Shown here: positions 18,330 to 35,420 of the stretch, piece by piece
How the letters are laid out: each line of letters starts with the position of its first letter
Position numbering within the stretch: the stretch's first letter is position 1
NCBI GenBank assembly: GCA_049521795.1
Contig: JBEKOM010000001.1
Coordinates: 672,001 to 736,000 of the forward strand
Length of the DNA stretch: 64,000 nucleotides
Reading direction: 5' to 3'
Source of the DNA: Candidatus Bathyarchaeia archaeon
GTDB lineage: Archaea; Thermoproteota; Bathyarchaeia; Bathyarchaeales; Bathycorpusculaceae
The notes under the pieces: generated by a model
Database searches by the model: none
The model's input: only the letters and a program-made list of their open reading frames with translations
Told to the model about the DNA's origin: nothing
Position numbers and translations under genes: made by a program

Positions 18330-20762
18330 TTGAACGAGAAGACCCAAGAGTTCAGTCAGATGACGATAGAGAATACAGTCAAGTCTCTGCAGTCAAATCT
18401 GAACCGTGGGCTCTCGCCGGATGAAGTTGCGACCAAGGTAGGCCAGTATGGATACAATGAAATCCCTGAGAAAAAAACTAACCCGCTGAAGATGTTTGCA
18501 AGTAAGTTCTGGGGTCTCACTGCATGGATGCTTGAAATCATAATTGTGCTTTCATGGTTCCTCCACAATTACCCAGACCTGTACATTGTGAGTGGGCTTC
18601 TTGTCTTCAATTCGATACTGGGTTTTGAGGAAGAACAGAGAGCATCAGGCGCTATGGAATCACTGAAACAGAAGCTGCAAGTCAATGCAAGAGTTCTCAG
18701 AGACGGCTCTTGGAGAAACTTGTCGGCTAGAGAATTGGTTCCAGGTGACATAATTAGGACGCGATCCGGTGACTTTGTGCCTGCCGACGTGAAAATAATA
18801 GATGGCGAGCTAGGAGTCGACCAATCAGCCTTGACGGGAGAGTCAATGACAATAGACAAAAAATCAAGCGACGTTCTCTATTCGGGCACCATTGTCAAGA
18901 GAGGCGAATCCAACGGCATCGTCATCTCAACAGGGCTGAAAACGTATTTTGGAAGAACTGCCCAGTTAGTCCAGCTTGCAAGGCCAAAACTGCACATGGA
19001 AGAAGTCATTTCAAACGTCGTCAAGTGGCTTCTGGTTATAGTTGTGTCGCTGATCATCATTGCTGTAGCTGTTTCAGCGTTCGAGGGTATCAGTCTTTTG
19101 GATGTGCTGCCAATAGTCTTGGTTCTATTTTTGTCTGCGATACCTGTTGCTTTGCCGGCAATGTTCACTGTCAGTATGGCGTTGGGCTCTATGGAGTTGG
19201 CCAAAAAAGGCGTGCTTGTGACTAGGCTGAGCGCGTCTGAGGATGCGGCAACGATGAGTGTGCTCTGCGCTGACAAAACGGGCACAATAACCATGAATAA
19301 GCTTTCAGTTGCAAACGTAATCCCTCTGAATGGGTTTACTGAGAAAGATGTAATACTGTACGGTGCCTTGGCTTCTCAAGAGGCTAACCAAGATCCTATT
19401 GATAACGCCTTTATTGTCAAGGCTAAATTGGAGAATTTGCCCGTTTCTTCGTTTGTACAGAGGAATTTTGTTCCTTTTGACGCGAAAACACGGAGAACTG
19501 AAGCCTTGGTGCAAAAGGACAACAGTGAATTCAAGGTCTTGAAGGGAGCTGTCAGTATCATAGCCAAAGAATGTGGGCTTCAAGACGACTTCGCAAGAGA
19601 CTTGGAATCCCGGATGAGCAAGTTGGCCGAAAAAGGTTACAGAACCCTAGCAGTCGCACGAGCACATGATCACGAGTCTCCTGATATTGTCGGTTTAGTG
19701 GCGCTTTACGACATGCCTAGGACTGATTCAAAACAGCTGATACAAGAGCTCAAGCACCTAGGGATATCAGTGAAAATGTTGACAGGAGACGCTCTTGCAA
19801 TAGCGAAGGAAGTTGCAGCTGAAGTAGGGCTCGGCGAACGGGTGATTAAAGCTTCGGACCTGAAAGAATTCGTAAAAGAGAACGCAATAGAAGCGGCACA
19901 GGCAGCCGAGAAAAGCGATGGGTTCGCAGAGATATATCCTGAGGACAAATACGCGATCGTCAAAAGCCTACAAGCCGCAGGACAGGTTGTGGGCATGACA
20001 GGCGACGGCGTGAATGATGCACCAGCCTTGAGACAAGCGGAAGTGGGCATAGCCGTGAGCAGTGCAACGGACGTTGCGAAGGGTGCAGCCAGCGTCGTCC
20101 TAACGAATGAGGGTTTGACCAGCATTGTCGATTTGGTCAGAAATGGGAGGGTAATCTTCGAAAGAATATCTGCATGGGTGCTGAGCAAGATAGTGAGAAC
20201 TTTACAGACTGCCATTTTCGTGGTCCTGTCCTTTATCTTAACGGGTAATTACGTCGTGTCAGCGTTCGCAATAGTTCTCCTCTTTTTCATGACCGACTTC
20301 GTCAAGATAGCACTGTCCACGGACGATTTGAAATGGTCACAGGAACCTAATACTTGGAACATAACTGGGATAGTGAAAGTGTCGCTGCTGCTTAGCACGC
20401 TGATTGTCATCGAGTCGTTTGGGCTCTTATATGTGGGACTCAACGTGTTCCATTTGAATGTCGCCGACGAAACCTTGTACACGTTCAGTTTTGAAATACT
20501 ATTCTATTTTGCCATGTTCCTAATATTCAACGTTAGAGAAAGAGAACATTTTTGGGAGTCGAGACCAAGCAAGACCCTGCTCACAGCAATGATACTGAGT
20601 ATGATTGCTGCAACAATAGTGACGACAACTGGAATTCCAGGCCTCAAACCTATACCATTGAATGAAACTCTATTTGTGGCGTTCTGCACTGCTACACTCT
20701 CGCTAACACTCAATGATCTGGCCAAGTTTCTCTTTGTTAAGAAAACAGAAAATAGATGGTGA
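18330..20762 (+). CDS. P-type ATPase, type IIIA (H+-ATPase-like), copy 1
   Basis: LTGES, IPVALP, DKTGT, MLTGD, MTGDGVNDAPAL, TM6 Asp (MTDF). Confidence 0.9.
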   Translation: MNEKTQEFSQMTIENTVKSLQSNLNRGLSPDEVATKVGQYGYNEIPEKKTNPLKMFASKFWGLTAWMLEIIIVLSWFLHNYPDLYIVSGLLVFNSILGFEEEQRASGAMESLKQKLQVNARVLRDGSWRNLSARELVPGDIIRTRSGDFVPADVKIIDGELGVDQSALTGESMTIDKKSSDVLYSGTIVKRGESNGIVISTGLKTYFGRTAQLVQLARPKLHMEEVISNVVKWLLVIVVSLIIIAVAVSAFEGISLLDVLPIVLVLFLSAIPVALPAMFTVSMALGSMELAKKGVLVTRLSASEDAATMSVLCADKTGTITMNKLSVANVIPLNGFTEKDVILYGALASQEANQDPIDNAFIVKAKLENLPVSSFVQRNFVPFDAKTRRTEALVQKDNSEFKVLKGAVSIIAKECGLQDDFARDLESRMSKLAEKGYRTLAVARAHDHESPDIVGLVALYDMPRTDSKQLIQELKHLGISVKMLTGDALAIAKEVAAEVGLGERVIKASDLKEFVKENAIEAAQAAEKSDGFAEIYPEDKYAIVKSLQAAGQVVGMTGDGVNDAPALRQAEVGIAVSSATDVAKGAASVVLTNEGLTSIVDLVRNGRVIFERISAWVLSKIVRTLQTAIFVVLSFILTGNYVVSAFAIVLLFFMTDFVKIALSTDDLKWSQEPNTWNITGIVKVSLLLSTLIVIESFGLLYVGLNVFHLNVADETLYTFSFEILFYFAMFLIFNVREREHFWESRPSKTLLTAMILSMIAATIVTTTGIPGLKPIPLNETLFVAFCTATLSLTLNDLAKFLFVKKTENRW

Positions 20763-20780: not shown

Positions 20781-21023
20781 ATGTCGCATATAAGAAGTGG
20801 CTGCGTCGTCTGTGGGGAGGAACTTGTTTATGGACAGAGTGAGAAACTAGAGTGCTTCTGCTGTCACAAAATTCTTGATTCAAACGCAAAGTGCGGAAAG
20901 GGGCACTACGTCTGCGACAAGTGCTATAGTATGCCTGGAAACGATCTGATAGAGAATTTCTGCAATACCAGCAAAATAGCAGATCCTTTGGAATTTGCGC
21001 GCGCGAGCTTTGCTTTTTTTTGA
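20781..21023 (+). pseudogene. truncated Cys-rich protein resembling the N-terminus of DUF5714-type proteins
   Basis: CVVCG..CFCC..C..GHYVCDKC..DPLE, then breaks off at a (GC)n tract; the HGPEHH domain recalled for full-length homologs is absent. Confidence 0.65.
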
Positions 21024-21031
21024 ATTGAGCA

Positions 21032-23437
21032 TCATTGTGGACCGCTTTTGAATTTGCGTATCAGATATACCTTGACGGGGTCATTGATCAGAAACGTCAC
21101 TATTAATGTATAGCCCAAGATTGTAAGTACGGGTATGTAGCCGAGTGGAGCAAGTTCTAGGAAGCCTAAGAGCGAAATCGCAATCACAAACAGGATTTCC
21201 ACCGTGATTGTGATGTTTAGAAAATTGCTGGGTCGTGACTTCCAGAAATGATTCCGTTCACGTACGATCATGAGAGTGAATACTCCTGCAAGATTCAAAT
21301 AGGCAAACCCGAATGTGTAGATCTTGTCCACGTTCCCGGTCAGCCCGAAATATGATAAACTAGCCACGGTGAGAACTACACTTTCGATTATCATCAGTAT
21401 CCCTAATGATCCGCTGACTCCAAACAGCCGCGAAACTTTGAACGAATCAGGCTTCGAAGAAGACTGCACGTTATCCGTCGATATAGACATCGAGACGAAG
21501 TCGCCTAAGAAAAGCAGGAGCACTGTGCCAGTAATTGACAGCATGAAGGAGTGAGTGAGAAACAGCATGACAACAATGTACCCGACGATATGCAGTTTCC
21601 GAGCGACCATCATCAACGCCCAGCTATAGATCCGCTGGTAAATCGTCCTCGACGTCTTGATCATAGCTATTATGCCTCCAAGACCCTCACCAGTGAGCAC
21701 GGCGCTTGCCGAATCTTTAGCAATATCCATTGCATTCTTGACTGCTATTCCCACTTCTGCCTGACTCAAAGCGGGAGCGTCATTCACACCATCGCCAGTC
21801 ATTCCAACCACGTGCCCGCGGTCCTGAAGAGCCTTCACTATCGTGAACTTGTCTTCAGGGTAAATCTCAGCAATGCCATCACTATCTTCAACCGTGGAGT
21901 CCAGAATCTCCCTTTGATCTTCCAACTTCTCGATCTTTGCCATCTTGGTTATCTTGTCGCCTAAACCTATCTGCTGAGCGATGTTCCTTGCAATCGGGAG
22001 CGCGTCGCCTGTAAGCATCTTCAAAGACACGCCCAAATCGCGGATTCGATCTAATGCGCCACGCGAATCTTCCCGTACCCTGTCGGCCACCCCTGCGAGA
22101 CCGACGAACGCAAGTCGACTCTTGTGATTCCCTCTGGCAACAGCGATCACTCTGAGCCCCTTGGCCGAGAGTGCCTCGGCATGCCTGAACAGGTCTTTTG
22201 ATTCTTTATCTGGTAAATTGCAGGAGGAGCAAATGGTGTTAATTGAGCCTTTTCCCACGTAGAATGTTTCACCCGATTTCTGAATCGTAGCTTCTGTCAT
22301 TCTAGTTTTGGGATCGAATGGCACGAACTCCATTTGCGAGTAACCGTCTAATGAGATATGTTCCTCAGCTGCGGCCGTCAAAAATGCTATATCTATAGGG
22401 TCTTGATTGGCTTCTTTCGATGCGAGCGCCCCGTAGAGCAAAACATCGTTTTTGCTGAGCCCATTAGTCGGAATTTCTTCTTCGATGAAGAGTTTATTCA
22501 TGGTGATTGTGCCTGTCTTGTCCGCACATAATACGTCCATAGTGGCTGCATCCTCGCTTGCGCTGAGCCTTGTAACAAGGACTCCTTGCTTTGCAAGCGC
22601 TGAAGAACCTAGCGCCATATTCACGGTGAACATGGTCGGCATCGCAACTGGCACGGAAGCCACAAGAAGTACTCCTGCAAGCGGCAGCAACACGTCAAAC
22701 GGGAACCCTGTGAGAAGAGCGTACACGAAGACTATTAGAAGAGATCCGAGAACTATCGTAAGAAGTCGGTTTGCAACTTTTACTGTTACCTCCTCCATGT
22801 GCAGCTTAGGTTTTGCAAGCTCGAGCAACGAAACGGTTTTTCCAAAGTAAGTCTTTGTTCCCGTGGCATCGACCGTGCCTGTAGCTTCCCCACGTTTGAC
22901 CGCTGATCCGGAATATGCTTTTTCTCCAAGAGATTTTTCCACGATTATAGATTCGCCTGTGAGGGCTGACTGGTCAACGCCGAAAGAACCGTCGATGATT
23001 TTCACGTCTGCAGGCAAGAGGTCGCCTGCTCTGACTCTTACGAGGTCACCAGGGACAAGTTCCCTAGCTGGAATGATTGACCATTTTCCATCCCTTTTGA
23101 CTCTGCTCTGGATCCGCAGCTTCTGCTTCAACGCAGCCATTGCTGTTCTGGCTCTTTTTTCTCGCCACAGTGCCATTGCAGCATTGAAGAGAAGGAGGAA
23201 CACGATGACGAGAGTTTGTGGATACTTGCCGAGCAGAAACGTGATTACTGCCGTGGCTTCAAGCATCCAAGGGACGATGCCCCAGAACCGTTTTCCAAGC
23301 CTTATGACAAAACTTACTTTCTTCTCAGGGATCTCATTATATCCATACCTTTCAAGCCTTCTCTGGGCTTCAATAGTCTCCAGTCCATTTTCAAAGTTAG
23401 TTTCTGACAATTTCTGTTCTTTATCTGGACCGACCAA
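21032..23437 (-). CDS. P-type ATPase, type IIIA (H+-ATPase-like), copy 2
   Basis: LTGES, VPVAMP, DKTGT, MTGDGVNDAPAL, LGDF; TTG start chosen after SD AGGTGA just downstream of arsR. Confidence 0.9.
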   Translation of the reverse strand: MVGPDKEQKLSETNFENGLETIEAQRRLERYGYNEIPEKKVSFVIRLGKRFWGIVPWMLEATAVITFLLGKYPQTLVIVFLLLFNAAMALWREKRARTAMAALKQKLRIQSRVKRDGKWSIIPARELVPGDLVRVRAGDLLPADVKIIDGSFGVDQSALTGESIIVEKSLGEKAYSGSAVKRGEATGTVDATGTKTYFGKTVSLLELAKPKLHMEEVTVKVANRLLTIVLGSLLIVFVYALLTGFPFDVLLPLAGVLLVASVPVAMPTMFTVNMALGSSALAKQGVLVTRLSASEDAATMDVLCADKTGTITMNKLFIEEEIPTNGLSKNDVLLYGALASKEANQDPIDIAFLTAAAEEHISLDGYSQMEFVPFDPKTRMTEATIQKSGETFYVGKGSINTICSSCNLPDKESKDLFRHAEALSAKGLRVIAVARGNHKSRLAFVGLAGVADRVREDSRGALDRIRDLGVSLKMLTGDALPIARNIAQQIGLGDKITKMAKIEKLEDQREILDSTVEDSDGIAEIYPEDKFTIVKALQDRGHVVGMTGDGVNDAPALSQAEVGIAVKNAMDIAKDSASAVLTGEGLGGIIAMIKTSRTIYQRIYSWALMMVARKLHIVGYIVVMLFLTHSFMLSITGTVLLLFLGDFVSMSISTDNVQSSSKPDSFKVSRLFGVSGSLGILMIIESVVLTVASLSYFGLTGNVDKIYTFGFAYLNLAGVFTLMIVRERNHFWKSRPSNFLNITITVEILFVIAISLLGFLELAPLGYIPVLTILGYTLIVTFLINDPVKVYLIRKFKSGPQ

Positions 23438-23450
23438 ACGCTCACCTAAG

Positions 23451-23777
23451 CTAATAAACCAATTGTTCAACAATACGTTTTGAAATATCGTCCATCAGTT
23501 CGAGGGTCGCCGCATCAATTATCTCAAATATTCTGCGATCTGTAATTGAATAGAGTCTTCTGTTGCCGTCTTTTCTGTCCCTCACTAGACCACAGTCTTT
23601 GAGAATTTTCAAATGGCGGGATACAACGGGCTGGATTAGTCCAACATGCGGGATTATTTCACACACACATTTCTCGTTGGTGCGTAGGAATTCAAGGATT
23701 TCAAGTCTCGTCGGGTCCGATAGGGCGTTAAAAATCTTTGCCTTGAACTTGACGAGTTTCTCTGCTTTGGAATGCAT
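23451..23777 (-). CDS. arsR: ArsR/SmtB-family metalloregulator
   Basis: FNALSDPTRLEIL, EKCVCEI, VSRHLKILKDCGLV. Confidence 0.9.
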   Translation of the reverse strand: MHSKAEKLVKFKAKIFNALSDPTRLEILEFLRTNEKCVCEIIPHVGLIQPVVSRHLKILKDCGLVRDRKDGNRRLYSITDRRIFEIIDAATLELMDDISKRIVEQLVY

Positions 23778-23797
23778 ACTTAGGATAATAACAATAA

Positions 23798-23813
23798 CAA
23801 TATTTAAATATTG
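23798..23813. promoter_or_regulatory. perfect 16-bp palindrome overlapping a TATA box; candidate ArsR operator
   Basis: CAATATTTAAATATTG in the divergent spacer between arsR and the DGC operon. Confidence 0.7.
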
Positions 23814-23879
23814 CTATAGACTCTTCCGTATTGGTATGCTAGAAAAGTCAAACGAGACATACGAGAAGAGGAATAGTTC

Positions 23880-24248
23880 GTGGAAAAAAGAAAAGTGAGC
23901 TTCATATTCTGTGTCTGCACGGGCAAGTGCTCTGGGTTCAAGGATTTGGATATGTGGGATTTCATAAACGTCATAAGAGCCGAGTATCCAGTTGAATACG
24001 CATTCATTCATCCCATGCTTTGTGATGAAGATGGGGAACGTTTCTTTGCAGACTTTCTCCGAAAAGACAGACTCTATGTCATAGGAGGATGTGCCCCAGT
24101 GATGCAGAAAAAATTGTTTCGAGACGCCTTTGCAAAGGCAGGGCTTGACATAAACAAAGACTTGGTTTCTCTTGACGTCAGGAATATGACGACCGAAAAG
24201 GCATTAGAAACTGTGAAGAAAGCCTTGGAGACCGCGGGTCAAGCATGA
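23880..24248 (+). CDS. stand-alone HdrA N-terminal-like Fe-S domain protein
   Basis: FCVC..C...PMLC...GGCAP..QKKLFRDAF..AGL...DVR parallels ICHC...YTC...ASCTP..HEPLF...AGL...NIR in this window's HdrA. Confidence 0.7.
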   Translation: MEKRKVSFIFCVCTGKCSGFKDLDMWDFINVIRAEYPVEYAFIHPMLCDEDGERFFADFLRKDRLYVIGGCAPVMQKKLFRDAFAKAGLDINKDLVSLDVRNMTTEKALETVKKALETAGQA

Positions 24249-24535
24249 CAGAAGAAACATACATGGGTGTTCCACGAAGCAGAATCCCTTGGTGTCCAAA
24301 GATAGATACATTGAAATGTAACCAGTGCGAGGGCGACCCGCAATGCCTCAGATTTTGCCCCCATGGAGTGTTCGAATACAACAAGGAAAAGAAGGAATTC
24401 ATCGTCAAAAACCCAAATAACTGCGTCGTGTTCTGCAGGGCGTGTTCCAAAGTTTGTGCTGAGGACGCTCTGAGTTTTCCAGAGAAGAAGGAAATTCTGA
24501 AGCTGATAAAGAATGTCAGAGAAGAAAAAAAGTAA
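24245..24535 (+). CDS. 2x[4Fe-4S] ferredoxin-like protein
   Basis: CNQCEGDPQCLRFCP and CVVFCRACSKVC. Confidence 0.85.
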   Translation: MTEETYMGVPRSRIPWCPKIDTLKCNQCEGDPQCLRFCPHGVFEYNKEKKEFIVKNPNNCVVFCRACSKVCAEDALSFPEKKEILKLIKNVREEKK

Positions 24536-24917
24536 GTACATAATCATCCCGTGTAGCGGGATCGGAAAGGCACTGGGAACGATAACGCGTAGAGCCACAT
24601 GCATCGTAACTGAAGAACTGTTGCCGAATGATACTGATTCTATTTGTCTTCCTTTGCTCACAATCGAAGATGAGGAGACTGTGCGGAAGATAAGAGAGAA
24701 CCCTTGCATAACCCTAGATGGCTGCGTTGCTCAATGTGCCAAAAAAAATGTTGAACACCATTACGGAGAACTCAAAGGAAGCATCAGGATCCTGGACGTG
24801 ATCAAGGAGAATCCCAAGCTTAAGCCTGGAACCGTGCTGGACATCGGACCTGACGGTGAGAAACTGGCAAGAAAAACAGCCGAAAAAACCGTCAAAATCA
24901 TAGGGGATAAAAGTTGA
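24513..24917 (+). CDS. DGC-domain putative zinc-binding protein 1
   Basis: PCSG...ICLP...LDGCVAQCA. Confidence 0.85.
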   Translation: MSEKKKSKYIIIPCSGIGKALGTITRRATCIVTEELLPNDTDSICLPLLTIEDEETVRKIRENPCITLDGCVAQCAKKNVEHHYGELKGSIRILDVIKENPKLKPGTVLDIGPDGEKLARKTAEKTVKIIGDKS

Positions 24918-25318
24918 TCAAACGCAAAATAGGCCTGATCTCCTGCAGCGGAGAAGGGCTTCCTGAAGGAATGATATCCCGCGTAGCAACTCGAAGAATA
25001 CTAGAAGAACGCGACGATGTCGTAACAATCTGCCTTCCTCTCTTTCTCGCAGGAGGACAAGAAGAGAGAGACTTCGCCAAGGACAATCCTTGCATAACCG
25101 TTGACGGCTGCGACAAGATGTGTGCGGCCAAAGGCGTCCAAATGTACGGCAAAGTGCATCCCAAATCGTCAATAGTCATATCAGACATTGCAGAAAAACA
25201 TAAACATCTTAAACCCAAATCAAAAAGCAGAATAGAACCTCAAGACGAGAAGCTTGTTAGAGAAACCATGAAACGCATTACTGAGGAGATAGACAGAGCA
25301 GAGGAGGAAGAAGAGTAG
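24914..25318 (+). CDS. DGC-domain putative zinc-binding protein 2
   Basis: SCSG...ICLP...VDGCDKMCA. Confidence 0.85.
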   Translation: MIKRKIGLISCSGEGLPEGMISRVATRRILEERDDVVTICLPLFLAGGQEERDFAKDNPCITVDGCDKMCAAKGVQMYGKVHPKSSIVISDIAEKHKHLKPKSKSRIEPQDEKLVRETMKRITEEIDRAEEEEE

Positions 25319-25319
25319 C

Positions 25320-25739
25320 ATGCCAATAGAAAAGAAAGTTGCCGTTGCTGTTTGCACGGGCATGGACCGACCGCTTGCAACAGTGTCCCGATACGCAGGA
25401 TACCATGTTCTAGAAAAACTGAGGACAGACAAGACTGTCTTACTTTGCACTCCAGCCCTAATAGGTGGCGTTCAAGAGGACGTGACCTTTGCCAAAGAGA
25501 ACCCAGTTTTGGTTATCGATGGCTGTGGAGAAAAGTGCTGTGAAAAGATAGTCAACGAGGCGAAAGGGAAAATCAAAGCCGTCATAAACGTTGAAGACGT
25601 TCTTAAGGAGCATGAAGACCTGCAGCCGGAGTCTAGAGCTAAGCTTGGGCCGAAAGGCATGAAACTTGCCGAGATAGTGGGTGAGATGGCCGCGAAGAAG
25701 GTTGACGAGATACTCGCAGAGGTGAACAAGAGTGAGTGA
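25320..25739 (+). CDS. DGC-domain putative zinc-binding protein 3
   Basis: VCTG...LCTP...IDGCGEKCC. Confidence 0.85.
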   Translation: MPIEKKVAVAVCTGMDRPLATVSRYAGYHVLEKLRTDKTVLLCTPALIGGVQEDVTFAKENPVLVIDGCGEKCCEKIVNEAKGKIKAVINVEDVLKEHEDLQPESRAKLGPKGMKLAEIVGEMAAKKVDEILAEVNKSE

Positions 25740-26127
25740 CAAGAAAGTCGCCATAGTTGCTTGCTCTGGCATGGGAAAAGCCCTTGGAACAGTGGCTCGA
25801 CAGGTCGCTTACAAGGTTGTGGACGAACTGAGACCTGACAAGACAGCCCTAATCTGCATTCCATCTTTGACCGCAGGGGTCGGAGAGTACAAGAGCCTGC
25901 TGCAAAAGTATCCTTCTATCATACTCGATGGTTGTGTGGAAAGGTGTGCCACCAAGATCATTTCCAAGAACCGAGGCATTATGAGAGCCAAAGTGTTTAT
26001 GCCCCAAATGGTTGCGAAGTATGGCTTGAAGCCAAAGTCGCGAACTGACCTTGGTGAAGAAGGCGAGAAGCTAGTTTCTAAGATAGCTGAGGAAGTAGCG
26101 GCGCTGGTTGACCAACTATCAAGGTGA
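25732..26127 (+). CDS. DGC-domain putative zinc-binding protein 4
   Basis: ACSG...ICIP...LDGCVERCA. Confidence 0.85.
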   Translation: MSDKKVAIVACSGMGKALGTVARQVAYKVVDELRPDKTALICIPSLTAGVGEYKSLLQKYPSIILDGCVERCATKIISKNRGIMRAKVFMPQMVAKYGLKPKSRTDLGEEGEKLVSKIAEEVAALVDQLSR

Positions 26128-26132
26128 AACAC

Positions 26133-26606
26133 ATGGAACATCTACAACTGAAAGTTGACAAATATACGTTCACTGTTCCCAAAGGTCTCTTCTATAATGA
26201 GAATGATTTCTGGGCCAGAATTGACGGCAAGATAGCCACGGTTGGAATAACGTCCTACCTGCAAAATCATTTGAGTGACATAATCTTCGTTTCCCTTCCA
26301 CAAGTTGGCACGAAGATTGAACAGTTCGGTGAAGCCGGATCTTTTGAATCAGTTAAGGCTGCTCTCGACGTCATATCACCCGTTTCAGGTTCAGTGGTGG
26401 AAGTCAATAATGAATTGGTAATTTCACCTGATCTAGCTAACTCCGATCCATACGGCAAAGGCTGGTTTCTGAAAATCGAGCTGTCAGACTTTGAATCAGA
26501 CAAAGAGAACCTCGCAGACGCTGAAGGATATTTTGAGGTAATGAAGAAAAAAGTCGAGAAAGAACATGAACAACTGAAGGGTACGCACGCTGCAAACAAG
26601 ACGTAG
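26133..26606 (+). CDS. gcvH: glycine cleavage H-like lipoyl carrier protein
   Basis: ATVGIT, FESVKAALDVISPVSG (lipoyl-Lys retained), NSDPYGKGW; ATG after SD AGGTGA. Confidence 0.88.
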   Translation: MEHLQLKVDKYTFTVPKGLFYNENDFWARIDGKIATVGITSYLQNHLSDIIFVSLPQVGTKIEQFGEAGSFESVKAALDVISPVSGSVVEVNNELVISPDLANSDPYGKGWFLKIELSDFESDKENLADAEGYFEVMKKKVEKEHEQLKGTHAANKT

Positions 26607-26624
26607 AGAGGAGATCAAGCCATC

Positions 26625-26855
26625 ATGGATGCAAGCTATGAGGAAATAAGCAGAAAGTACCGGTTACTCAAAACTGAACAGGCGAGTATCGACCTATTCT
26701 CTCTGCAAAGGGAAATTCAGGACTACATAAAGAATCGCCAGGGCGCAAAACGAAAAGCTGGTGATATGGTGGAGGAAGCACAGGACATGTTAATGGATGT
26801 TACGCAGATGATTGAAGAGGGTCACTGTAACCCTCTTAGAAATAAGAAACTGTAG
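26625..26855 (+). CDS. hypothetical helical protein (76 aa)
   Basis: SD GAGGAG, operon position, protein-like composition. Confidence 0.65.
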   Translation: MDASYEEISRKYRLLKTEQASIDLFSLQREIQDYIKNRQGAKRKAGDMVEEAQDMLMDVTQMIEEGHCNPLRNKKL

Positions 26856-26977
26856 TCATTTCTTCTGTCTGGGTTGGAACTATGAAGAGAATTGTGCTTA
26901 TAGCGCTAAGAACGCAGGCAAACACGGGGGACTGAAGCGCTCGTCAGATGCGGGGGAAAGCGAAGAGGTGCTTGTAA

Positions 26978-27472
26978 ATGGACAGGATGAAGGTTCTTTT
27001 CCTGTGTGAACACAATTCAGCTAGATCGCAGATGGCTGAAGGTTTGCTAAGACATCTGTACGGTGAAAAATATGAAGTCTTCAGCGCGGGCGCAAATCCG
27101 ACGCAAGTCAATCCTTTTGCCATCAAGATTATGGCTGAGATAGGAATAGATATTTCCAAGCAGACTTCCAAGAGCATTGAAGAGTTCCGAAACAAGGAAA
27201 TCGACTTGGTTGTCTCAGTGTGCAGAAGCAGCGCCAAGCTAATGTGTTCACTGTGTTCTTCACCAATAGTCATGGGTAGACCAGAGATAATCAACACGAC
27301 AATACCCGGAGCAAAACACTATCTCCACCATGGATTCAACGATCCTTCTGAAGTAATCGGGAGTGACGAGGAAAAGACCATGGCCTTTCGACGCACTAGA
27401 GACGACATCAAACAGTGGATAATTGATAATTTTGCCGATCCAAAGACAATAAGCTCGGACAACGATGCATAG
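26978..27472 (+). CDS. arsC: thioredoxin-type arsenate reductase / LMW-PTP family
   Basis: LFLCEHNSARSQMAEG P-loop, VFSAG, SVC...C, FNDP, FRRTRDDI. Confidence 0.88.
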   Translation: MDRMKVLFLCEHNSARSQMAEGLLRHLYGEKYEVFSAGANPTQVNPFAIKIMAEIGIDISKQTSKSIEEFRNKEIDLVVSVCRSSAKLMCSLCSSPIVMGRPEIINTTIPGAKHYLHHGFNDPSEVIGSDEEKTMAFRRTRDDIKQWIIDNFADPKTISSDNDA

Positions 27473-27597: not shown

Positions 27598-28017
27598 TCA
27601 GTCACTGTGATCCTTTTTTGGAGTGACTCTGTTTTTTATTCTGTGTGCGGGGATTTTGTTGTAGGTTGCTGAACATTTCTTTTTGGAGCATTGCCTAGTG
27701 GCAGCCCATTTCAGGATCGGGATCACCGCTTCTCTTAGCCCTTTTCCATCTTTTGTCAATGAGTATTGGACGCGAGGCGGGATTTCGGCAAATGATTCTC
27801 TTTTAATTAGCTCTTCCTCTTGAAGCTGTTTTAGCGTGTCTGCAAGTGTCTTGGGGCTTATGCCGTGTAGTTCTTCCATGAGTTTGTTGAATCTGAGGCT
27901 ACCGTAATTCCCAATTGCGTTTATGATAAGAAGTGCCCATTTCTTGCTTATTACGTCTATGATTCCTTCAAGCGGACAAAAGCAAACTACGTCATTCCTG
28001 TTCTGCGTACCTGTCAC
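27598..28017 (-). CDS. HxlR-family winged-helix regulator
   Basis: CFCPLEGIIDVISKKW, LRFNKL, ISPKTL, EIPPRVQYSLT. Confidence 0.9.
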   Translation of the reverse strand: MTGTQNRNDVVCFCPLEGIIDVISKKWALLIINAIGNYGSLRFNKLMEELHGISPKTLADTLKQLQEEELIKRESFAEIPPRVQYSLTKDGKGLREAVIPILKWAATRQCSKKKCSATYNKIPAHRIKNRVTPKKDHSD

Positions 28018-28041
28018 TTTCCTTTTGGATAGGAACTATTT

Positions 28042-28083
28042 CACTATAAACTTGATAGCATAAATACTTTACTTGTAATAGTA
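28042..28083. promoter_or_regulatory. tandem candidate HxlR operators
   Basis: CACT-N11-AGCA (28042-28060) and TACT-N11-AGTA (28065-28083) in the divergent spacer. Confidence 0.6.
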
Positions 28084-28104
28084 TCAGAATAGAGGTGATA
28101 ATAA

Positions 28105-28305
28105 ATGGACCAAGAGTGCGGGTGTGGGATGCATCATCATAGACATGAAGACCATTGTGGGTGCGGCATGCATGGAGATGGACACGGGTACAGAAGACGA
28201 TTCTTCACAAAGACCGAAAAAGTTGAGAAGCTGAAGAGCTACGCGGAAGAACTCAAGAATGAACTGAAAGCTGTCGAAGAGAAAATCAAGGAGATGCAGA
28301 GTTAA
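28105..28305 (+). CDS. small Cys/His-rich protein with C-terminal coiled coil
   Basis: CGCGMHHHRHEDHCGCGMH followed by RRFFTK...heptads; SD GAGGTGA. Confidence 0.8.
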   Translation: MDQECGCGMHHHRHEDHCGCGMHGDGHGYRRRFFTKTEKVEKLKSYAEELKNELKAVEEKIKEMQS

Positions 28306-28338
28306 ATATCCATACAACCAATCGGTGTGAGAAGGAAT

Positions 28339-29034
28339 ATGTCGAAACAAAACAATCTCCATGTTTATTCTGCTGGTGCAGTAGCACCCCCAATCAAGAA
28401 ATGCGCAGAAGAGTTCAAAGCAAGATTCGGAACAGAATTCGAGTTTACTGTCGGAAAGGCTGAAAACCTCATAGAAGAAATCGGAGAAACCAAAGAAGGC
28501 GACTTGTTAACTTGCGGTTCAGAGTACATACTTGACCATGCACAGTTGAAGGGATTAATTCTTAAAGAAACAAGAAGAAGCCTTGGTTCAAGAACCTCTG
28601 CTATTCTTGTGCAGACTGGAAATCCGAAAAAAATAAAGTCAATGTCCGATTTGGCGAAAGAAGGAATGCATCTTGGTGTTTCTGTAAGTGGCTGTTTGAC
28701 TGGGGTCTGGGATGATTTAGCAACTAAAGCGGGATTTGCCGAGCAAATCAGAAAGAACACCATTGCTTATGCCGATGGATGTGGGGAATTGATGTCTTTT
28801 GTCAACAAGAAGAAAGTGGATGCAGTTCTGGGATGGGATGCCTTCAAGAACTTGAACATGCAAACTATGGATAAAATAGACTTGCCGAAAGACCTTCAAG
28901 TGCACAGAAGTACAGCTATAGGGGTCATTTCTTTCTCCAAGAACAGAGACCTTGCGAAGAAATTCATCGACTTCCTTGTGTCCGTCAGCGGTAAGAAGAT
29001 TTATGAAGAATACGGCTGGCATCATTTAAGCTAG
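28339..29034 (+). CDS. ModA-like oxyanion-binding protein without a signal peptide
   Basis: LHVYSAGAV, GDLLTCGSE, VQTGNPKKIKSMSDL, AKKFIDFL..GKKIYEEYGW. Confidence 0.8.
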   Translation: MSKQNNLHVYSAGAVAPPIKKCAEEFKARFGTEFEFTVGKAENLIEEIGETKEGDLLTCGSEYILDHAQLKGLILKETRRSLGSRTSAILVQTGNPKKIKSMSDLAKEGMHLGVSVSGCLTGVWDDLATKAGFAEQIRKNTIAYADGCGELMSFVNKKKVDAVLGWDAFKNLNMQTMDKIDLPKDLQVHRSTAIGVISFSKNRDLAKKFIDFLVSVSGKKIYEEYGWHHLS

Positions 29035-29340: not shown

Positions 29341-29937
29341 ATGGTATTCAGCTTGAGCAAGACCAAGCATAGAATGTTGGTATCCATGGGGAAAAATGTT
29401 GAAGCTCTTGCCGGAGAAGCGATAAGCGAGAAGGTCATGGAAGGCAGCGAAGAAATAACCGAGAAAACTGACAAGATCAGGACAGCTGAATGGGTCAGAG
29501 GCGTGATGGAAAGACTGGACGCCTTGGTCAGCGAAGAAACGAGGATTCAGATCATGGAGAACTGTGGCCGCGACTGTGCTGATGTAAACAAGAGGGTCAT
29601 CGACAGGGCCAAATTGAACCGCAAGAAGTTCAAGAGCGCAGACGAGTTTCTTGAGGCAGAACAGAAAAAGCCTATGACTGGAACAAGACTCGTTAGAGAA
29701 AGCAACGTGCTCTACCAGTTCTACACGCCGAAGGCGTTCACTAGGCCGAAGAGGTGCTATTGCGGTTTGCTGAGAGGACTTCCTGACAGGACAACCGTAT
29801 CGAAAACGTACTGCCACTGCTCGAAAGGGTTTGTTAAGAAATTCTGGGAAAGTGTTCTTGAGAGACCTGTGAAGGTTGAACTCATCCAATCAGCTGTCTC
29901 GGGCGCAAATGAATGCAAGTTTGCCATTCATCTCTGA
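29341..29937 (+). CDS. DUF6144-like Cys-containing protein
   Basis: MENCGRDC, RCYC, YCHCSKG, VKVEL..S...G..ECKFAI. Confidence 0.7.
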   Translation: MVFSLSKTKHRMLVSMGKNVEALAGEAISEKVMEGSEEITEKTDKIRTAEWVRGVMERLDALVSEETRIQIMENCGRDCADVNKRVIDRAKLNRKKFKSADEFLEAEQKKPMTGTRLVRESNVLYQFYTPKAFTRPKRCYCGLLRGLPDRTTVSKTYCHCSKGFVKKFWESVLERPVKVELIQSAVSGANECKFAIHL

Positions 29938-30021
29938 CGGTGAGGAGAGGCAAAGGGTAAAAAATCTCTTGCGTGGCGCTCTAAAGAGACAGAAACAGGA
30001 TGGTAATACTATGCTGCAAAT

Positions 30022-30690
30022 CTAGGTTGTTTTGATTCCGGTGCGTGCGCTGTGCGTGTCGTAGAGTTTGTGTTTGTAGTATCCCTTTGCAGTGTATAAT
30101 GCTCCAACGGGATTGTGGCATAAGACCCTGTCCTTAGCAACCAAGACTGTTACGGGTGCTTTGGAATACTTGATGAAGGTTGAGTCATGTCCCACACAGA
30201 GTCCTACAATTATGTTCAATTCCGTTTTCGCCTTGTTCATGATTAGAGCTTGTGCTACTGGGTTGCAAATAGGCTCGAAGGCACCGGGATGCACTTTCTC
30301 ACTGTCTTTCAGTCCCAACTCTTCCTTTGGAACACCACCAGTCTTACAGAATACAAAAGTCACCTGAAAGCCGTTGGACTCTAAAATATCTGTCAATATT
30401 TTTCCCTCCTCGGCCAACCCTGCACAGCAGGCAACACCCAGCTTGTCGAAATTCATCGTTCTGGCAAATTCCATCGTGTCCTCGACTCTGGTCCACTTCA
30501 TATAACCCTCTGACTCCACCAGAGCAGAAGCATGAGCTAATTTCGCTACGCCAGGTTTTTCATATTCTTCCCTAGCTTTCTTTAAAACATCTTTCTCAAC
30601 GTTCATCGGACAAAAATCCAGCTTGGAAGTAACTCGAGCTCGTTGAGGATGTTCGCACACGAAAACGGTACATTTGCTACATTTAACCAC
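30022..30690 (-). CDS. DUF1847-family metal-binding protein
   Basis: TRVED, ACCAGL, CKTG, CNPVAQA, GLCVGHDS, KDRVLCHNP. Confidence 0.85.
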   Translation of the reverse strand: MVKCSKCTVFVCEHPQRARVTSKLDFCPMNVEKDVLKKAREEYEKPGVAKLAHASALVESEGYMKWTRVEDTMEFARTMNFDKLGVACCAGLAEEGKILTDILESNGFQVTFVFCKTGGVPKEELGLKDSEKVHPGAFEPICNPVAQALIMNKAKTELNIIVGLCVGHDSTFIKYSKAPVTVLVAKDRVLCHNPVGALYTAKGYYKHKLYDTHSARTGIKTT

Positions 30691-30850
30691 GATCTTTCCC
30701 CGCGAATAGGATAACGTTGTTTCTGCAGAACTTATGTCTTACCCGTCGCGTCACATTGTGAATTCCCATTTGCACCCTGCGCGGGCGCTGACCATTTATC
30801 TTAAATATGCAGCGGCTAAACACGAATCGATATGGTGCAAGGCGATAGTA

Positions 30851-31705
30851 ATGGACGTCAAGATTACCAACATCTACAATAATGAGGCTTTGCCCGGGAA
30901 AGGCCTCAAAAGTGGGCACGGAGAATGCTTTCATATCGCAATGGGCGACAAACAGATTCTTCTTGATACTGGATGGAAAGGCGGAAAACTCCTGCATAAT
31001 ATGAAGAGACTGGGAATAGATGCTGATTATATCGATAAGTTGGTGCTTTCGCATGGTCACAGGGATCACACGGGCGGGTTGAAATCGTTTCTTGGGGTGA
31101 GACCAGTCCAGAAACCAGTGCAGATCTTTGCGCATCCAAGTGCTATGGAGCCCAAGTCAGCGAAGATATTCTTGTTTCACATCTCGATGGGATTGCCAAA
31201 GCTTAGTAGGGAACTGACCAAAAAAGCGGAATTTCATTTGACTAAAGATTCAGTTGAAGTGCTTCCGAACCTCGTTACGACGGGAGAGATTCCGATTGCG
31301 GAACGACTGGAGAAGCCGGGGATAGTGACGGGTGCGTTTCATAAGGTTAATGGACGGCGGGAGTGGGATCCTGTCATTGACGATTTGTCGCTGATTCTTG
31401 AAGCAAAAGATGGATTAGTGTTGGTGACTGGTTGCTGTCATGCGGGATTGTTGAATACGTGTGCACGTGCCACACGACTCTTCAATGGGAGAATCATTGC
31501 CATACTCGGGGGCACTCACATGGTGGAATACTCGCAAGAGGATGTTGACCACGTAGGAGAGGTTCTGGAAAAGGTGTATGGAACTCCGGAACTGTACTTG
31601 AATCATTGCACCGGAAAAGACGCCATTGGACGACTGAGAGGCAAATTTGGATCAGAAGTAGTACACGATTGCCACGTGGGCACAGAAGTAGTTTTCAAAA
31701 TCTAA
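30851..31705 (+). CDS. MBL-fold metallo-hydrolase (COG1237-like)
   Basis: LLDTG, SHGHRDHTGG, TGCCHAG, GGTH, HCTG; start set at MDVKIT. Confidence 0.85.
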   Translation: MDVKITNIYNNEALPGKGLKSGHGECFHIAMGDKQILLDTGWKGGKLLHNMKRLGIDADYIDKLVLSHGHRDHTGGLKSFLGVRPVQKPVQIFAHPSAMEPKSAKIFLFHISMGLPKLSRELTKKAEFHLTKDSVEVLPNLVTTGEIPIAERLEKPGIVTGAFHKVNGRREWDPVIDDLSLILEAKDGLVLVTGCCHAGLLNTCARATRLFNGRIIAILGGTHMVEYSQEDVDHVGEVLEKVYGTPELYLNHCTGKDAIGRLRGKFGSEVVHDCHVGTEVVFKI

Positions 31706-31726
31706 GCGCGCGCTAAATTCCGAAAA

Positions 31727-32278
31727 TCATATTGTAAATTCCCATCTGCACCACGAGTCTGAAGGGTGCTTGTCTGGTGGACAGAACAAACAGCCTACTT
31801 CTACTTTTGGATTCAGAGTCTTCGCGAAATTCTTCAAATATCCAAACCGTACTCTCTTGCAGGGAAATTCGCATAAACCTTTGCCCAGGCGAGCCTCCTG
31901 AGTCCTACACCTATCGATGCCAAGGGTAACCCGCTTGTTTCCAATTTTGATGGTCTTGAAGGGTTGATCCAGTGCCCAACTGGATTTGCGCAAAAGACCA
32001 ATAATCGTTGCCACGTCCGGGTTCTCGGCAATCTTTAACATTCGCTGCAGGCTCTTGGCCTCGATTGCAGCCATGCTCTCCCAAACCTGAGCATCAATTT
32101 CAGTTGCCGCTTCAGTCCCAAACTTCTTTTCGATGCCTAGAAAATACAAGCCATCAACTCTCCAAATGTTACGAATCTGCAGAAAGAAATAATCAAACAG
32201 TTTCTCCATGGGCATTTCGGCCAGTGTCTCACGGTCTTCTCGACTTCCAGGAGGATATTCACTCATGCCTTTCACCAT
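31727..32278 (-). CDS. DUF6125-like protein
   Basis: DGLYFL, CRTQEAR, FPCK, CLFCPPD...WCRWEF. Confidence 0.7.
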   Translation of the reverse strand: MVKGMSEYPPGSREDRETLAEMPMEKLFDYFFLQIRNIWRVDGLYFLGIEKKFGTEAATEIDAQVWESMAAIEAKSLQRMLKIAENPDVATIIGLLRKSSWALDQPFKTIKIGNKRVTLGIDRCRTQEARLGKGLCEFPCKRVRFGYLKNFAKTLNPKVEVGCLFCPPDKHPSDSWCRWEFTI

Positions 32279-34157: not shown

Positions 34158-35420
34158 ATGAACGAGAAGAATCAGCTTTTTAGAAAAGGAGAAAGAGCTG
34201 CGATTCTTTCTGCAGCTGTTCTCCTAGCGTTCAGCATTCTGAAGGGCACAGTATCGATAATCTCTGGGAGCGTGGCATTACTCGCAGACTCTATTCATTC
34301 CTTTGCTGACATTTTTTCCTCGATTGCTGTCTGGGCCGGACTCAAGCTGGTTCAGAAAAAACCTACCGAAAGATTTCCATACGGATATTATAAGGCAGAA
34401 ACCTTGGCCTTGCTGATAGTCGCCGTGACGATCGTTGTATCAGGTGTTCTGATCTTGAAAGAAGCTGTGGATAAACTGTTTGTACGCAGCGTTGTCCTGT
34501 TTCCATCTGTTGTTCTTGCGGTGGCCGCTTTTTCAGGGCTGGTCTCCTACTTTCTTGGTAGGTACAAGAAAAGCGTGGGAAGCCTTATTGGTTCTCAGTC
34601 GCTTATTAGTGAAGGACAACATTCTTTGGTAGACGTCTATACCGCATTAATGGTTTTCGTAGGTGTCTTGTTTGCCAGCCTAGGTTATCCTGTGTCTGAG
34701 GTTTTGGCGGGCTTGGCTATTGGGTTGTACGTTATGAAAGTGGGGTTGTGGTTTGGAAAGGATGCAGTGCTGGTTCTTATGGATGCTTGTTTGAGTCCGC
34801 AAAAGGCCAGAGAAATGAAGGAAATAGCGGAGAAGGTGCGAGGAGTAAGTGGAGTGCATGATCTCAGGTTGCATAGATCAGGACCAGTGTCCTTTGGAGA
34901 GATGCACATAGAGGTGGAAGAAGCTCTTCCTCTGGAGAAAGCACATGAGATTTCAGATGAGATCGAAGAGAAGATTAGAGGGCGTTTCAAGGATATTGAA
35001 TCAATCACGATTCATGTAGAACCAGCATACAAACAGAAAGTCAAGGTTGGCATTCCAGTGGTGGAAGACAAGGGGTTGGAATCAAAGACTTCTGCTCATT
35101 TTGGGAATGTACCCTTTTTTGCATTCATAGAGCTGGAGAATAGGCAAATAAGGAATGTGTATGTCAAGGTCAACAAAGCAGCGAGAACAGAGAGGAAGAA
35201 AGGAATAGGTGCTGCTCGATTCTTGGTGGACGAAAAAGTTGACGTGGTGCTTGCAGGAGGCATGGGCGAAGGTCCATTTCACCTATTGAGAGACAACCTT
35301 GTTCAGATATTTGTTCTTCCAGAACAGGTTGAACTCAAGGAAGCGATCCGTCTTCTCAACGAGAACAAGCTAGAAAGAATGACAGCGCCATTTGAGAAAA
35401 ATGAAACGGATGATAGGTAA
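34158..35420 (+). CDS. cation diffusion facilitator with C-terminal NifB/NifX domain
   Basis: LADSIHSFAD, FPYGYYKAE, HSLVD, AHEIS, IHVEP, then AHFGNVPFF...GMGEG. Confidence 0.9.
   Translation: MNEKNQLFRKGERAAILSAAVLLAFSILKGTVSIISGSVALLADSIHSFADIFSSIAVWAGLKLVQKKPTERFPYGYYKAETLALLIVAVTIVVSGVLILKEAVDKLFVRSVVLFPSVVLAVAAFSGLVSYFLGRYKKSVGSLIGSQSLISEGQHSLVDVYTALMVFVGVLFASLGYPVSEVLAGLAIGLYVMKVGLWFGKDAVLVLMDACLSPQKAREMKEIAEKVRGVSGVHDLRLHRSGPVSFGEMHIEVEEALPLEKAHEISDEIEEKIRGRFKDIESITIHVEPAYKQKVKVGIPVVEDKGLESKTSAHFGNVPFFAFIELENRQIRNVYVKVNKAARTERKKGIGAARFLVDEKVDVVLAGGMGEGPFHLLRDNLVQIFVLPEQVELKEAIRLLNENKLERMTAPFEKNETDDR

Follow-up and report, generated by a model that had tools for sequence, protein, structure and literature searches.

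In the genome of a Candidatus Bathyarchaeia archaeon (GenBank assembly GCA_049521795.1; 2.44 Mb in 69 contigs, 98.75% complete) we analysed a stretch of 64,000 nucleotides, hereafter called the window (contig JBEKOM010000001.1, positions 672,001 to 736,000), which carries a compact gene cassette next to an arsR gene. The cassette encodes a small iron-sulfur (Fe-S) protein resembling the N-terminal domain of HdrA (HdrA-N-like), a ferredoxin, four DGC-domain proteins (DGC1 to DGC4), a lipoyl protein of the GcvH family and a small helical protein, orf76 (Table 1). These eight plus-strand genes diverge from arsR across a perfect 16-bp palindrome and are joined, in order, by overlaps of 4, 23 and 4 bp, a gap of 1 bp, overlaps of 8 and 4 bp and a gap of 18 bp, after which 122 bp separate orf76 from an ArsC-like gene. 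An initial annotation, made from the sequence alone, had described this anatomy, including the tight coupling, the divergence from arsR and the palindrome, and the open reading frame (ORF) listing and family scans bear it out. It had also called orf76 an orphan, which does not hold, as homologues of orf76 lie downstream of the cassette in 10 related loci.

The ArsC-like protein scores 108.5 bits against TIGR02691, the model for thioredoxin-coupled ArsC of the pI258 type, which is under the cut-off of 174.3, and a P-loop CEHNSARS (CX5R) is visible in its sequence; copies of its gene that are 92-94% identical stand downstream of the cassette in the related loci L006 and L011. On the other side, a gene for a proton-type P-type ATPase shares the orientation of arsR, whose end it overlaps by 23 bp, and occupies the slot that in most related loci is held by the gene for the arsenite permease Acr3; such an ATPase is found at the same position in L005, L006 and L011 as well.

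Near-identical DNA is present in peat metagenome runs from three studies, and the genome may stem from one of them. One peat RNA library contains five contigs, 90-99% alike, that fall on parts of DGC1, DGC3, DGC4-GcvH and the end of GcvH, a single one of them bridging the DGC4/GcvH junction. As such a library can hold DNA and contigs do not demonstrate a transcript, they give at most a weak hint of expression, and the parts of the locus left uncovered carry no meaning. Scans for promoter and terminator consensus sequences returned 5 sites against 4.7 in shuffled sequence and 5 against 4.1, respectively, archaeal promoters lying outside the consensus of the tool.

Table 1. Features of the cassette and of the flanking genes (window coordinates)
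Feature	Position	Strand	Evidence and remarks
arsR (ArsR/SmtB metalloregulator, EKCVCE motif)	23451..23777	-	HTH_5 E 8e-19; NF033788 97 bits vs 55
Palindrome CAATATTTAAATATTG, perfect, 16 bp	23798..23813	.	within 102-bp arsR/HdrA-N intergenic region
HdrA-N-like protein, 122 aa	23880..24248	+	no Pfam match; NCBIfam HdrA E 9e-4
Ferredoxin, 2x[4Fe-4S] type, 96 aa	24245..24535	+	Fer4_7, Fer4_6, Fer4_9
DGC1	24513..24917	+	PF08859 57.7 bits vs cut-off 27
DGC2	24914..25318	+	PF08859 61.2 bits vs cut-off 27
DGC3	25320..25739	+	PF08859 53.9 bits vs cut-off 27
DGC4	25732..26127	+	PF08859 57.8 bits vs cut-off 27
GcvH, 160 aa	26124..26606	+	PF01597 122.2 bits vs 22.2; TIGR00527 127 bits vs 115.85
orf76, small helical protein, 76 aa	26625..26855	+	no Pfam/NCBIfam match; 18 bp after GcvH
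LMW-PTP-type ArsC-like arsenate reductase candidate	26978..27472	+	LMWPc 61.5 bits vs 23.2
P3A-type (plasma-membrane proton-efflux) P-type ATPase	21032..23473	-	TIGR01647 699.6 bits vs cut-off 615.5; Pfam E1-E2_ATPase
HxlR-family regulator	27598-28017	-	
66-aa His/Cys-rich ORF, no family	28105-28305	+	
Molybdate/tungstate-type binding protein (SBP_bac_11)	28327-29034	+	

Conservation of the cassette and its arsenic context

With the HdrA-N-like protein as query and one genome kept per species, 40 related loci were obtained, of which 26 were taken as judgeable because they extend 2.7 kb or more past the point where the HdrA-N-like gene starts. In 24 of these the HdrA-N-like gene is followed by a ferredoxin gene, two to five DGC genes and a gcvH, and in 25 by the ferredoxin gene; the two exceptions are a Nezhaarchaeota locus with the ferredoxin and HdrA-N-like genes alone and a locus with a partial match of 29 residues. 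The carriers are Bathyarchaeia, which contribute almost all loci (as metagenome-assembled genomes), Thorarchaeota and a Dehalobacterium (Firmicutes). The initial annotation had treated these genes as one system, and across two archaeal phyla and Firmicutes they are indeed conserved together. Their spread is patchy, with the HdrA-N-like gene present in 42 of 301 genomes and 20 of 123 genera sampled in the phylum and in none of the 16 further genomes of the family to which the window belongs, which is the pattern of an accessory island.

Six weaker HdrA-N-like matches (G243, G365, G320, G185, G123 and G314; E 1e-32 to 1e-36) each contain one in-frame stop, which is TAA, TAG or TGA within this subgroup. 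Two contigs assigned to one bin each carry a copy of the cassette, L014 being intact and L034 having its HdrA-N-like, DGC2, DGC3 and GcvH genes split by frame breaks; the latter may be a decaying duplicate or an artefact of binning or assembly.

Four Firmicutes loci of one class (L083-L086) were fetched for comparison. The Firmicutes cassette runs in the order dihydrolipoyl dehydrogenase (Lpd), HdrA-N-like protein, ferredoxin, a fusion of a DGC domain to GcvH (DGC::GcvH), a DGC1-type and a DGC2-type protein, ArsR and a small CMD-family protein. Among strict anaerobes this ArsR-regulon cassette is widespread, and the window carries its Bathyarchaeial form, in which GcvH is unfused and four DGC genes are present. 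The invariant core comprises an ArsR bearing CxC, a pair of Fe-S proteins, two or more distinct DGC proteins and a lipoyl H-protein.

Both its fold (NF033788, Table 1) and its CxC thiolate site place the regulator of the window in the ArsR/SmtB family. The motif reads CVC, at a position which we take to be helix alpha-3, and CxC is kept, as CVC, CAC, CQC or CGC, in 36 of the 37 aligned ArsR rows adjoining the cassette, one subgroup of which gains an N-terminal Cys-bearing extension. No other site in the 2.44-Mb genome matches the palindrome to within 2 mismatches, and all 12 related divergent-arsR loci that were checked carry it at the corresponding position (0-2 mismatches), even where ArsR identity is only 64-73%. 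Because it is unique in the genome and conserved at this place, it is likely to be the ArsR operator of the divergent promoters. Second exact copies occur at L035:5808 and L037:2213, the one in L037 just upstream of a gene for a 128-aa ferredoxin-like protein followed by DUF169, so that the ArsR regulon may include further operons in some genomes.

In 38 of the 40 loci an arsR stands within -4/+7 kb. The commonest neighbour family is Acr3, encoded directly after arsR (representative: 331 bits on TIGR00832, cut-off 282.8); tblastn detected it at a distance of up to 7 kb in 21 of the 40 loci, clustering in 19. ArsC accompanies 8 loci and an ArsP-like gene 3, and at least one of Acr3, ArsC or an ArsP-like permease accompanies 26 of the 40. 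Other recurrent neighbours are Usp, DUF169, a DsbD-type membrane protein with a thioredoxin-like partner, an ArsP_1-family permease and a C_GCAxxG_C_C protein. The Firmicutes islands also hold arsR-Acr3-ArsC, an ArsP-like permease and the arsenite methyltransferase ArsM (NF008823, 362 bits against 263).

The arsenic link extends to DGC genes at large. DGC was found in 53 of 401 sampled Firmicutes genomes, and the best 30 of these loci, inspected over +/-1.5 kb, have an ars-type neighbour in 24 cases (ArsP-like 15, arsR 12, Acr3 3, ArsM 2), as assigned by tblastn similarity without a Pfam check per locus. The one paper found to mention PF08859, a preprint, records a DGC gene as the last of the arsR-arsP-arsE operon of Pseudodesulfovibrio mercurii ND132 (10.1101/2022.10.17.512643). 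The DGC family is thus ars-linked in general.

Downstream of GcvH, about nine loci (L016-L028 and related) share a recurrent block, which besides DUF169 and orf76 encodes a thioredoxin-like protein (about 246 aa) that matches ResA weakly, a membrane protein of the DsbD/CcdA type and a protein of 103 aa without a family. This DsbD/thioredoxin-like block suggests that reducing power is exported across the membrane in some versions of the cassette.

Proteins of the cassette and neighbouring genes

The GcvH of the window passes the cut-offs of both PF01597 and TIGR00527, carries N- and C-terminal extensions and displays the lipoyl-lysine motif ESVKA, the lysine column being kept in 30 of 30 aligned cassette GcvH sequences. 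In the genome it stands apart from gcvT: a second, canonical gcvH (136 aa) lies at C1:470035, about 226 kb from the cassette (at about C1:696000), gcvT lies at C1:61641, about 636 kb away, and neither gcvT nor gcvP was found among the recurrent neighbour families of the 40 loci. Service in a normal GcvPT system, which the initial annotation had named as a point against its proposal, is therefore very unlikely for this protein. The canonical gcvH itself (C1:470035-471802) is directly followed by a gene for a 448-aa pyridine-nucleotide disulfide oxidoreductase, not by gcvT or gcvP.

In Dehalobacterium and in 2 Thorarchaeota, GcvH carries one DGC domain fused to its N-terminus. When the fused protein was used as query, 1340 homologues were returned at E <= 1e-5, and the best 120 all carry both domains, among them proteins of Dehalobacter, Desulfitobacterium hafniense, Desulfosporosinus, Syntrophomonas and Desulfofundulus. 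An Lpd gene is situated directly upstream in L083-L086 (TIGR01350, 502-531 bits against 408.8) and, judged by similarity, in L114 and L115, which makes six Firmicutes loci with Lpd in all, and in L084 a lipoate-protein ligase (LplA; TIGR00545, 356 bits against 280) is encoded inside the operon, before ArsR. Because the lysine is invariant, DGC::GcvH fusions exist and Lpd and LplA are co-encoded in Firmicutes, the lipoyl arm appears to be central to the cassette.

The four DGC paralogs (131-139 aa), of which DGC2-4 share 32-38% identity with DGC1, all keep C14, C45, the D-G-C71 motif and C75 (DGC1 numbering). In an alignment of 31 DGC sequences C14, G16, G70, C71 and C75 are invariant and C45, D69, R26 and G22 nearly so, and all four pass PF08859 (53.9-61.2 bits), which agrees with the earlier description of four diverged proteins that each retain the cysteines and the DGC motif. 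An AlphaFold2 (AF2) model of DGC1 (pLDDT 94.3) shows a Rossmann-like alpha/beta fold with the cysteines just after strands 1, 2 and 3, where, according to this model, they would sit at the usual cofactor edge of such folds. An informative relative did not emerge from the searches: the 31-sequence profile gave chance matches in the PDB (E >= 0.75), Foldseek with the DGC1 model gave none at E <= 0.001, and the ESM Atlas gave unnamed clusters with scores up to 0.77. A wide VIA-align search returned generic Rossmann/flavodoxin-like folds, with the uncharacterised 3pu6_A as best match (Z 9.3; root-mean-square deviation 3.0 over 115 residues) and no DsrE/TusD chain among the 50 best structural matches; Pfam may place the DGC domain in the DsrE-like clan.

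A quick maximum-likelihood tree was built from 99 DGC domains, leaving out ORFs shorter than 100 or longer than 190 aa as well as the frameshifted or fused ORFs of L011 and L034. In it, DGC1 (30 rows, SH-aLRT 97) and DGC2 (29 rows, SH-aLRT 98) form separate clades that each span Bathyarchaeia, Thorarchaeota and Firmicutes, and DGC2 is always the next gene after DGC1. DGC3 forms a clade of 10 rows (SH-aLRT 98), this paralog being present in part of the loci only, while a weaker DGC4-type group (28 rows, SH-aLRT 85) unites the GcvH-proximal paralog with the 4 Firmicutes GcvH-fused domains. Because the clades span Archaea and Firmicutes, the paralogs are old and non-redundant, with DGC1 and DGC2 as ancient separate orthogroups.

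Of the hetero-oligomeric DGC complex that the initial annotation had proposed, the contact between DGC1 and DGC2 gained support from complex prediction. The score of the pair was 0.83 (best of three controls: 0.00), a mark attained by 58 of 80 solved complexes and by 2 of 110 mismatched pairs; these counts hold roughly, as alignments of our own were used. Three runs agreed in at least 94% of contacts, with a partner pLDDT of at least 86. The predicted interface comprises residues 12-18, 43-53 and 73-76 of DGC1 and residues 10-16, 40-47 and 70-71 of DGC2, segments which coincide with the conserved-Cys loops (C14, C45 and C75 in DGC1; C11, C40 and C70 in DGC2). The two proteins are thus predicted to pair through their cysteine loops, which supports binding; we know of no similar solved complex.

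The HdrA-N-like protein matches the NCBIfam HdrA model with residues 4-97 against model positions 6-95 of 771, at 17.2 bits against a cut-off of 1400. Its 17 homologues, with a mean identity of 65% per column, share five invariant cysteines (C11, C13, C17, C48 and C71), and their profile hits HdrA residues ~4-93 in the PDB (7bkb_A, E 1.4e-4; 9sfi_A, 9.5e-4; 5odc_A, 4.3e-3). For the AF2 model (pLDDT 87.9) the top 7 Foldseek matches are all HdrA chains, the best being 7bkd_A (E 4.7e-5, TMq 0.71), followed by MvhD. The identity given in the initial annotation, an Fe-S protein like the HdrA N-terminus, is thereby strengthened: the N-terminal [4Fe-4S] domain of HdrA is present, and the FAD-binding thioredoxin-reductase-like and ferredoxin domains are absent from the 122 aa. 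Profile and model agree that the protein is a stand-alone copy of the cluster-binding HdrA N-terminal domain, and it is likely to act as a [4Fe-4S] relay. A search of 1.84 billion representatives gave 150 matches at E <= 0.001 and 71 at 1e-10; the family is small and highly conserved. A homology between the HdrA-N-like and DGC proteins, considered for their similar cysteine layout, found no support, as hhalign of the HdrA-N-like profile against the DGC profile gave a probability of 1.1%.

In the wider neighbourhood, the ATPase gene next to arsR (21032-23473, minus strand) converges with that of a paralogous P3A proton ATPase (18330-20762, plus strand), the products being 46% identical over 785 residues, and an 80-aa Cys-rich ORF of no family (20781-21023) lies between them. 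Beyond the ArsC-like gene, the region from 27598 to 29034 (Table 1) looks like a metal-handling neighbourhood. It is followed at 29341-32278 by a run of genes of unknown function, for DUF6144, DUF1847, a metallo-beta-lactamase-fold protein and DUF6125 and, at 34158-35420 (plus strand), by a gene for a cation-diffusion-facilitator transporter fused to a Nitro_FeMo-Co domain (dinitrogenase cofactor-binding type).

A putative role in metalloid stress and its alternatives

The reading that we tentatively prefer, with somewhat less than even confidence, is that of a redox cassette for metalloid stress, with a lipoyl dithiol arm of its own at the centre. ArsR would be freed from the palindrome by a thiophilic metalloid, As(III) or Sb(III) being the likeliest, upon which the operon would be expressed, yielding a lipoylated H-protein dedicated to this task, four-cysteine DGC proteins assembled into a hetero-oligomer and a short Fe-S wire of ferredoxin and HdrA-N-like protein. 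This wire and the DGC heteromer would hand low-potential electrons to the lipoyl arm and so keep it in the dithiol state; in Firmicutes the co-encoded Lpd would reduce the arm from NAD(P)H. The dihydrolipoyl arm might then act as a reductant of pentavalent arsenicals, directly or via the neighbouring ArsC-like enzyme, or as a chelating swinging arm that draws trivalent arsenic off essential lipoyl enzymes and passes it on, and it could fill either role or both. The initial annotation had left metalloid detoxification, sulfur transfer and lipoyl-cofactor handling side by side; of these, metalloid defence is now clearly favoured because of the CxC kept in 36 of 37 regulators, the ars neighbours and the ars linkage of 24 of 30 stand-alone DGC loci, whereas sulfur transfer found no support in the cassette or among its recurrent neighbours. 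Gene content, conservation, the DGC::GcvH fusion, the ArsR/ars linkage, the HdrA-N homology and the predicted DGC1-DGC2 interface are what the analysis shows; from these we infer the step from being conserved in ars islands to acting on arsenic, and with it any chemistry, the order of the relay that the initial annotation had proposed, the cofactors, the direction of electron flow, the substrate and the inducer.

Several points weigh against this reading. In a genome that is 98.75% complete, no Acr3 and no ArsB were found and tblastn returned no ArsP-like gene, and the arsR of the window is followed by a proton-type P-ATPase, not by an arsenite pump. In the phylum sample, Acr3 is present in 15 of 42 genomes with the HdrA-N-like marker and in 49 of 259 without it, relatives among them not being independent; the cassette is therefore often, but not always, linked to arsenite export. 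Besides, Cd, Pb, Zn and Bi can be sensed by CxC sites of the ArsR type, so that the motif does not settle the inducer. NCBI labels the DGC family 'putative zinc-binding protein', paralogs of a homodimerising family can score as heterodimers, and the loci that bear Lpd leave the ferredoxin/HdrA-N branch without an explained role.

A rather unlikely alternative, though the foremost of those considered, assigns the cassette to binding only: the DGC proteins and the dihydrolipoyl arm would act as a metallochaperone or sink that takes up trivalent arsenicals (As(III), methyl-As(III)) and delivers them to an exporter (Acr3 or ArsP), with the Fe-S proteins or Lpd keeping thiols reduced and no arsenical being reduced. 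Vicinal dithiols bind As(III), the DGC cysteine loops lie at the predicted protein-protein interface, and in the best 30 Firmicutes loci stand-alone DGC adjoins an ArsP-like permease in 15 and arsR in 12; a DGC gene is also part of the arsR-arsP-arsE operon noted above (10.1101/2022.10.17.512643). However, neither Acr3, ArsB nor an ArsP-like gene was found in the window genome, 27 of the 42 marker-carrying genomes of the phylum sample show no Acr3, and a pure chaperone has no obvious need for a ferredoxin and an HdrA-N-like Fe-S protein that are conserved in 25 of 26 loci. We regard as unlikely that the cassette serves a general thiol or peroxide defence, in which a lipoyl relay like Lpd/H-protein/OsmC or Lpd/DlaT/AhpD/AhpC would be controlled by an ArsR-type regulator that senses thiol-reactive stress. 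The upstream Lpd and the small CMD/AhpD-family protein after arsR in Firmicutes (25.6 bits against 23) are consistent with it, as are the Usp genes that adjoin arsR in 7 loci and the GcvH paralogs known or proposed to work with OsmC or in oxidative stress (bioRxiv 10.64898/2026.10.01.755906; PMC12440151). Yet no OsmC, AhpC or peroxiredoxin was found in the cassette or among its recurrent neighbours, these neighbours are arsenic-specific (Acr3, ArsC, ArsM, ArsP-like), and the regulator keeps the metal-type CxC.

A long shot is that the DGC heteromer and the lipoyl H-protein together form a new kind of arsenical-transforming enzyme of anaerobes, with the arm carrying arsenic between four-Cys active sites situated where DGC1 and DGC2 meet. 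In one form, such an enzyme would possibly be a ferredoxin- or NADH-driven reductase of pentavalent inorganic or organic arsenicals (methylarsonate, aromatic), the products of which are exported or methylated; in another it might process As-C or As-S species independently of oxygen. Very doubtful, in our judgement, is a sulfur relay akin to sHdr-LbpA or DsrEFH, in which the DGC proteins would carry persulfide to or from the lipoyl protein, e.g. for thioarsenates or sulfide: a lipoyl GcvH-like protein next to an Hdr-related piece recalls sHdr-LbpA, three to four adjacent alpha/beta paralogs of ~135 aa recall DsrEFH/TusBCD, and some ArsR-family members sense persulfide, but HdrA is present as its N-terminal domain only, the ArsR cysteine pattern is the metal-type CxC, and neither the cassette nor its recurrent neighbours include an HdrB/C-type CCG domain, TusA, DsrE or rhodanese. 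Hardly any credence can be given to ordinary glycine metabolism, that is, GcvH acting in glycine cleavage or reductive glycine synthesis with ferredoxin-dependent reduction. The GcvH passes an equivalog cut-off (TIGR00527) and gcvT is present in the genome, but that gcvT is distant, a canonical gcvH exists elsewhere, gcvT and gcvP do not recur around the 40 loci, the constant partners are ArsR and ars genes, and the spread is patchy down to 0 of 16 genomes in the window's own family.

Arsenite is toxic largely through tying up the dithiol of lipoyl enzymes. An ArsR-controlled cassette with a dedicated lipoyl protein would, if the metalloid-stress redox function is true, reverse this textbook relation between arsenite and lipoate, and if an arsenical-transforming enzyme were indeed formed, lipoate, the classic target of arsenite, would be a catalytic cofactor of arsenic detoxification. 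Either would enlarge the arsenic resistance of anaerobes, the organisms behind arsenic mobilisation in peat, sediments and aquifers, by a new class of components. The cassette would also offer a first functional setting for the DGC domain (PF08859) and for a stand-alone HdrA-N-like protein. The cultured Dehalobacterium formicoaceticum, Desulfitobacterium hafniense and Desulfosporosinus carry the fused GcvH form, and full cassettes are present in genomes of the same class.

Comparison with known systems

The initial annotation knew of no described system of this composition, and full-text literature searches, with most subscription journals outside their coverage, likewise found no published description of the cassette, which is so far undescribed. 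Its closest setting is that of the ars operons (ArsR-Acr3-ArsC and kin), with which the window shares the CxC ArsR, the palindromic operator and the downstream ArsC-like gene, and of which Acr3, ArsP-like and ArsM are frequent neighbours in cassette relatives as well. The thiol accessories of ars operons include the thioredoxin system ArsT/ArsX. Within the literature searched, described ars operons contain no lipoyl H-protein, HdrA-N-like protein or DGC array, and they differ further in that the window genome is without a recognisable arsenite pump.

From the heterodisulfide reductase side, the HdrA N-terminal domain and MvhD of methanogen Hdr have the same fold and the same cysteine positions as the protein of the window, which in contrast to methanogen HdrA stands alone, has a fifth invariant Cys and lacks the rest of HdrA. 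In sHdr-LbpA a lipoate-binding GcvH-like protein is likewise encoded with an Hdr-related component. The window, however, has the ~120-aa HdrA N-terminal domain alone, with no FAD domain, HdrB/C CCG subunits, TusA/DsrE or LipS1/S2, and the HdrB/HdrC-type CCG and ferredoxin subunits and full sHdrA that define sHdr-LbpA are missing both among the cassette proteins and among the recurrent neighbours.

The lipoyl H-protein relays that operate outside glycine cleavage resemble the cassette in having a GcvH paralog set apart from the glycine cleavage genes, which serves in them, and would serve here, as a stress-defence dithiol carrier. One preprint cites an Lpd/H-protein/OsmC relay of Trichomonas hydrogenosomes, and such a relay is proposed for Hyphomicrobium GcvH_1 (bioRxiv 10.64898/2026.10.01.755906). 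The S. aureus GcvH-L/LplA2/SirTM system is named as a kindred relay; the window has no SirTM or macrodomain gene. Neither Lpd nor a peroxidase partner, which together characterise the Lpd/H-protein/OsmC or AhpD relays, is encoded in the window, and the Firmicutes relatives have Lpd and a weak CMD-family match but no OsmC or AhpC. Like these relays, cassette relatives have their own Lpd and lipoate ligase; unlike them, the cassette has no OsmC, and its lipoyl protein is instead partnered by DGC proteins and two Fe-S proteins and placed under the control of ArsR.

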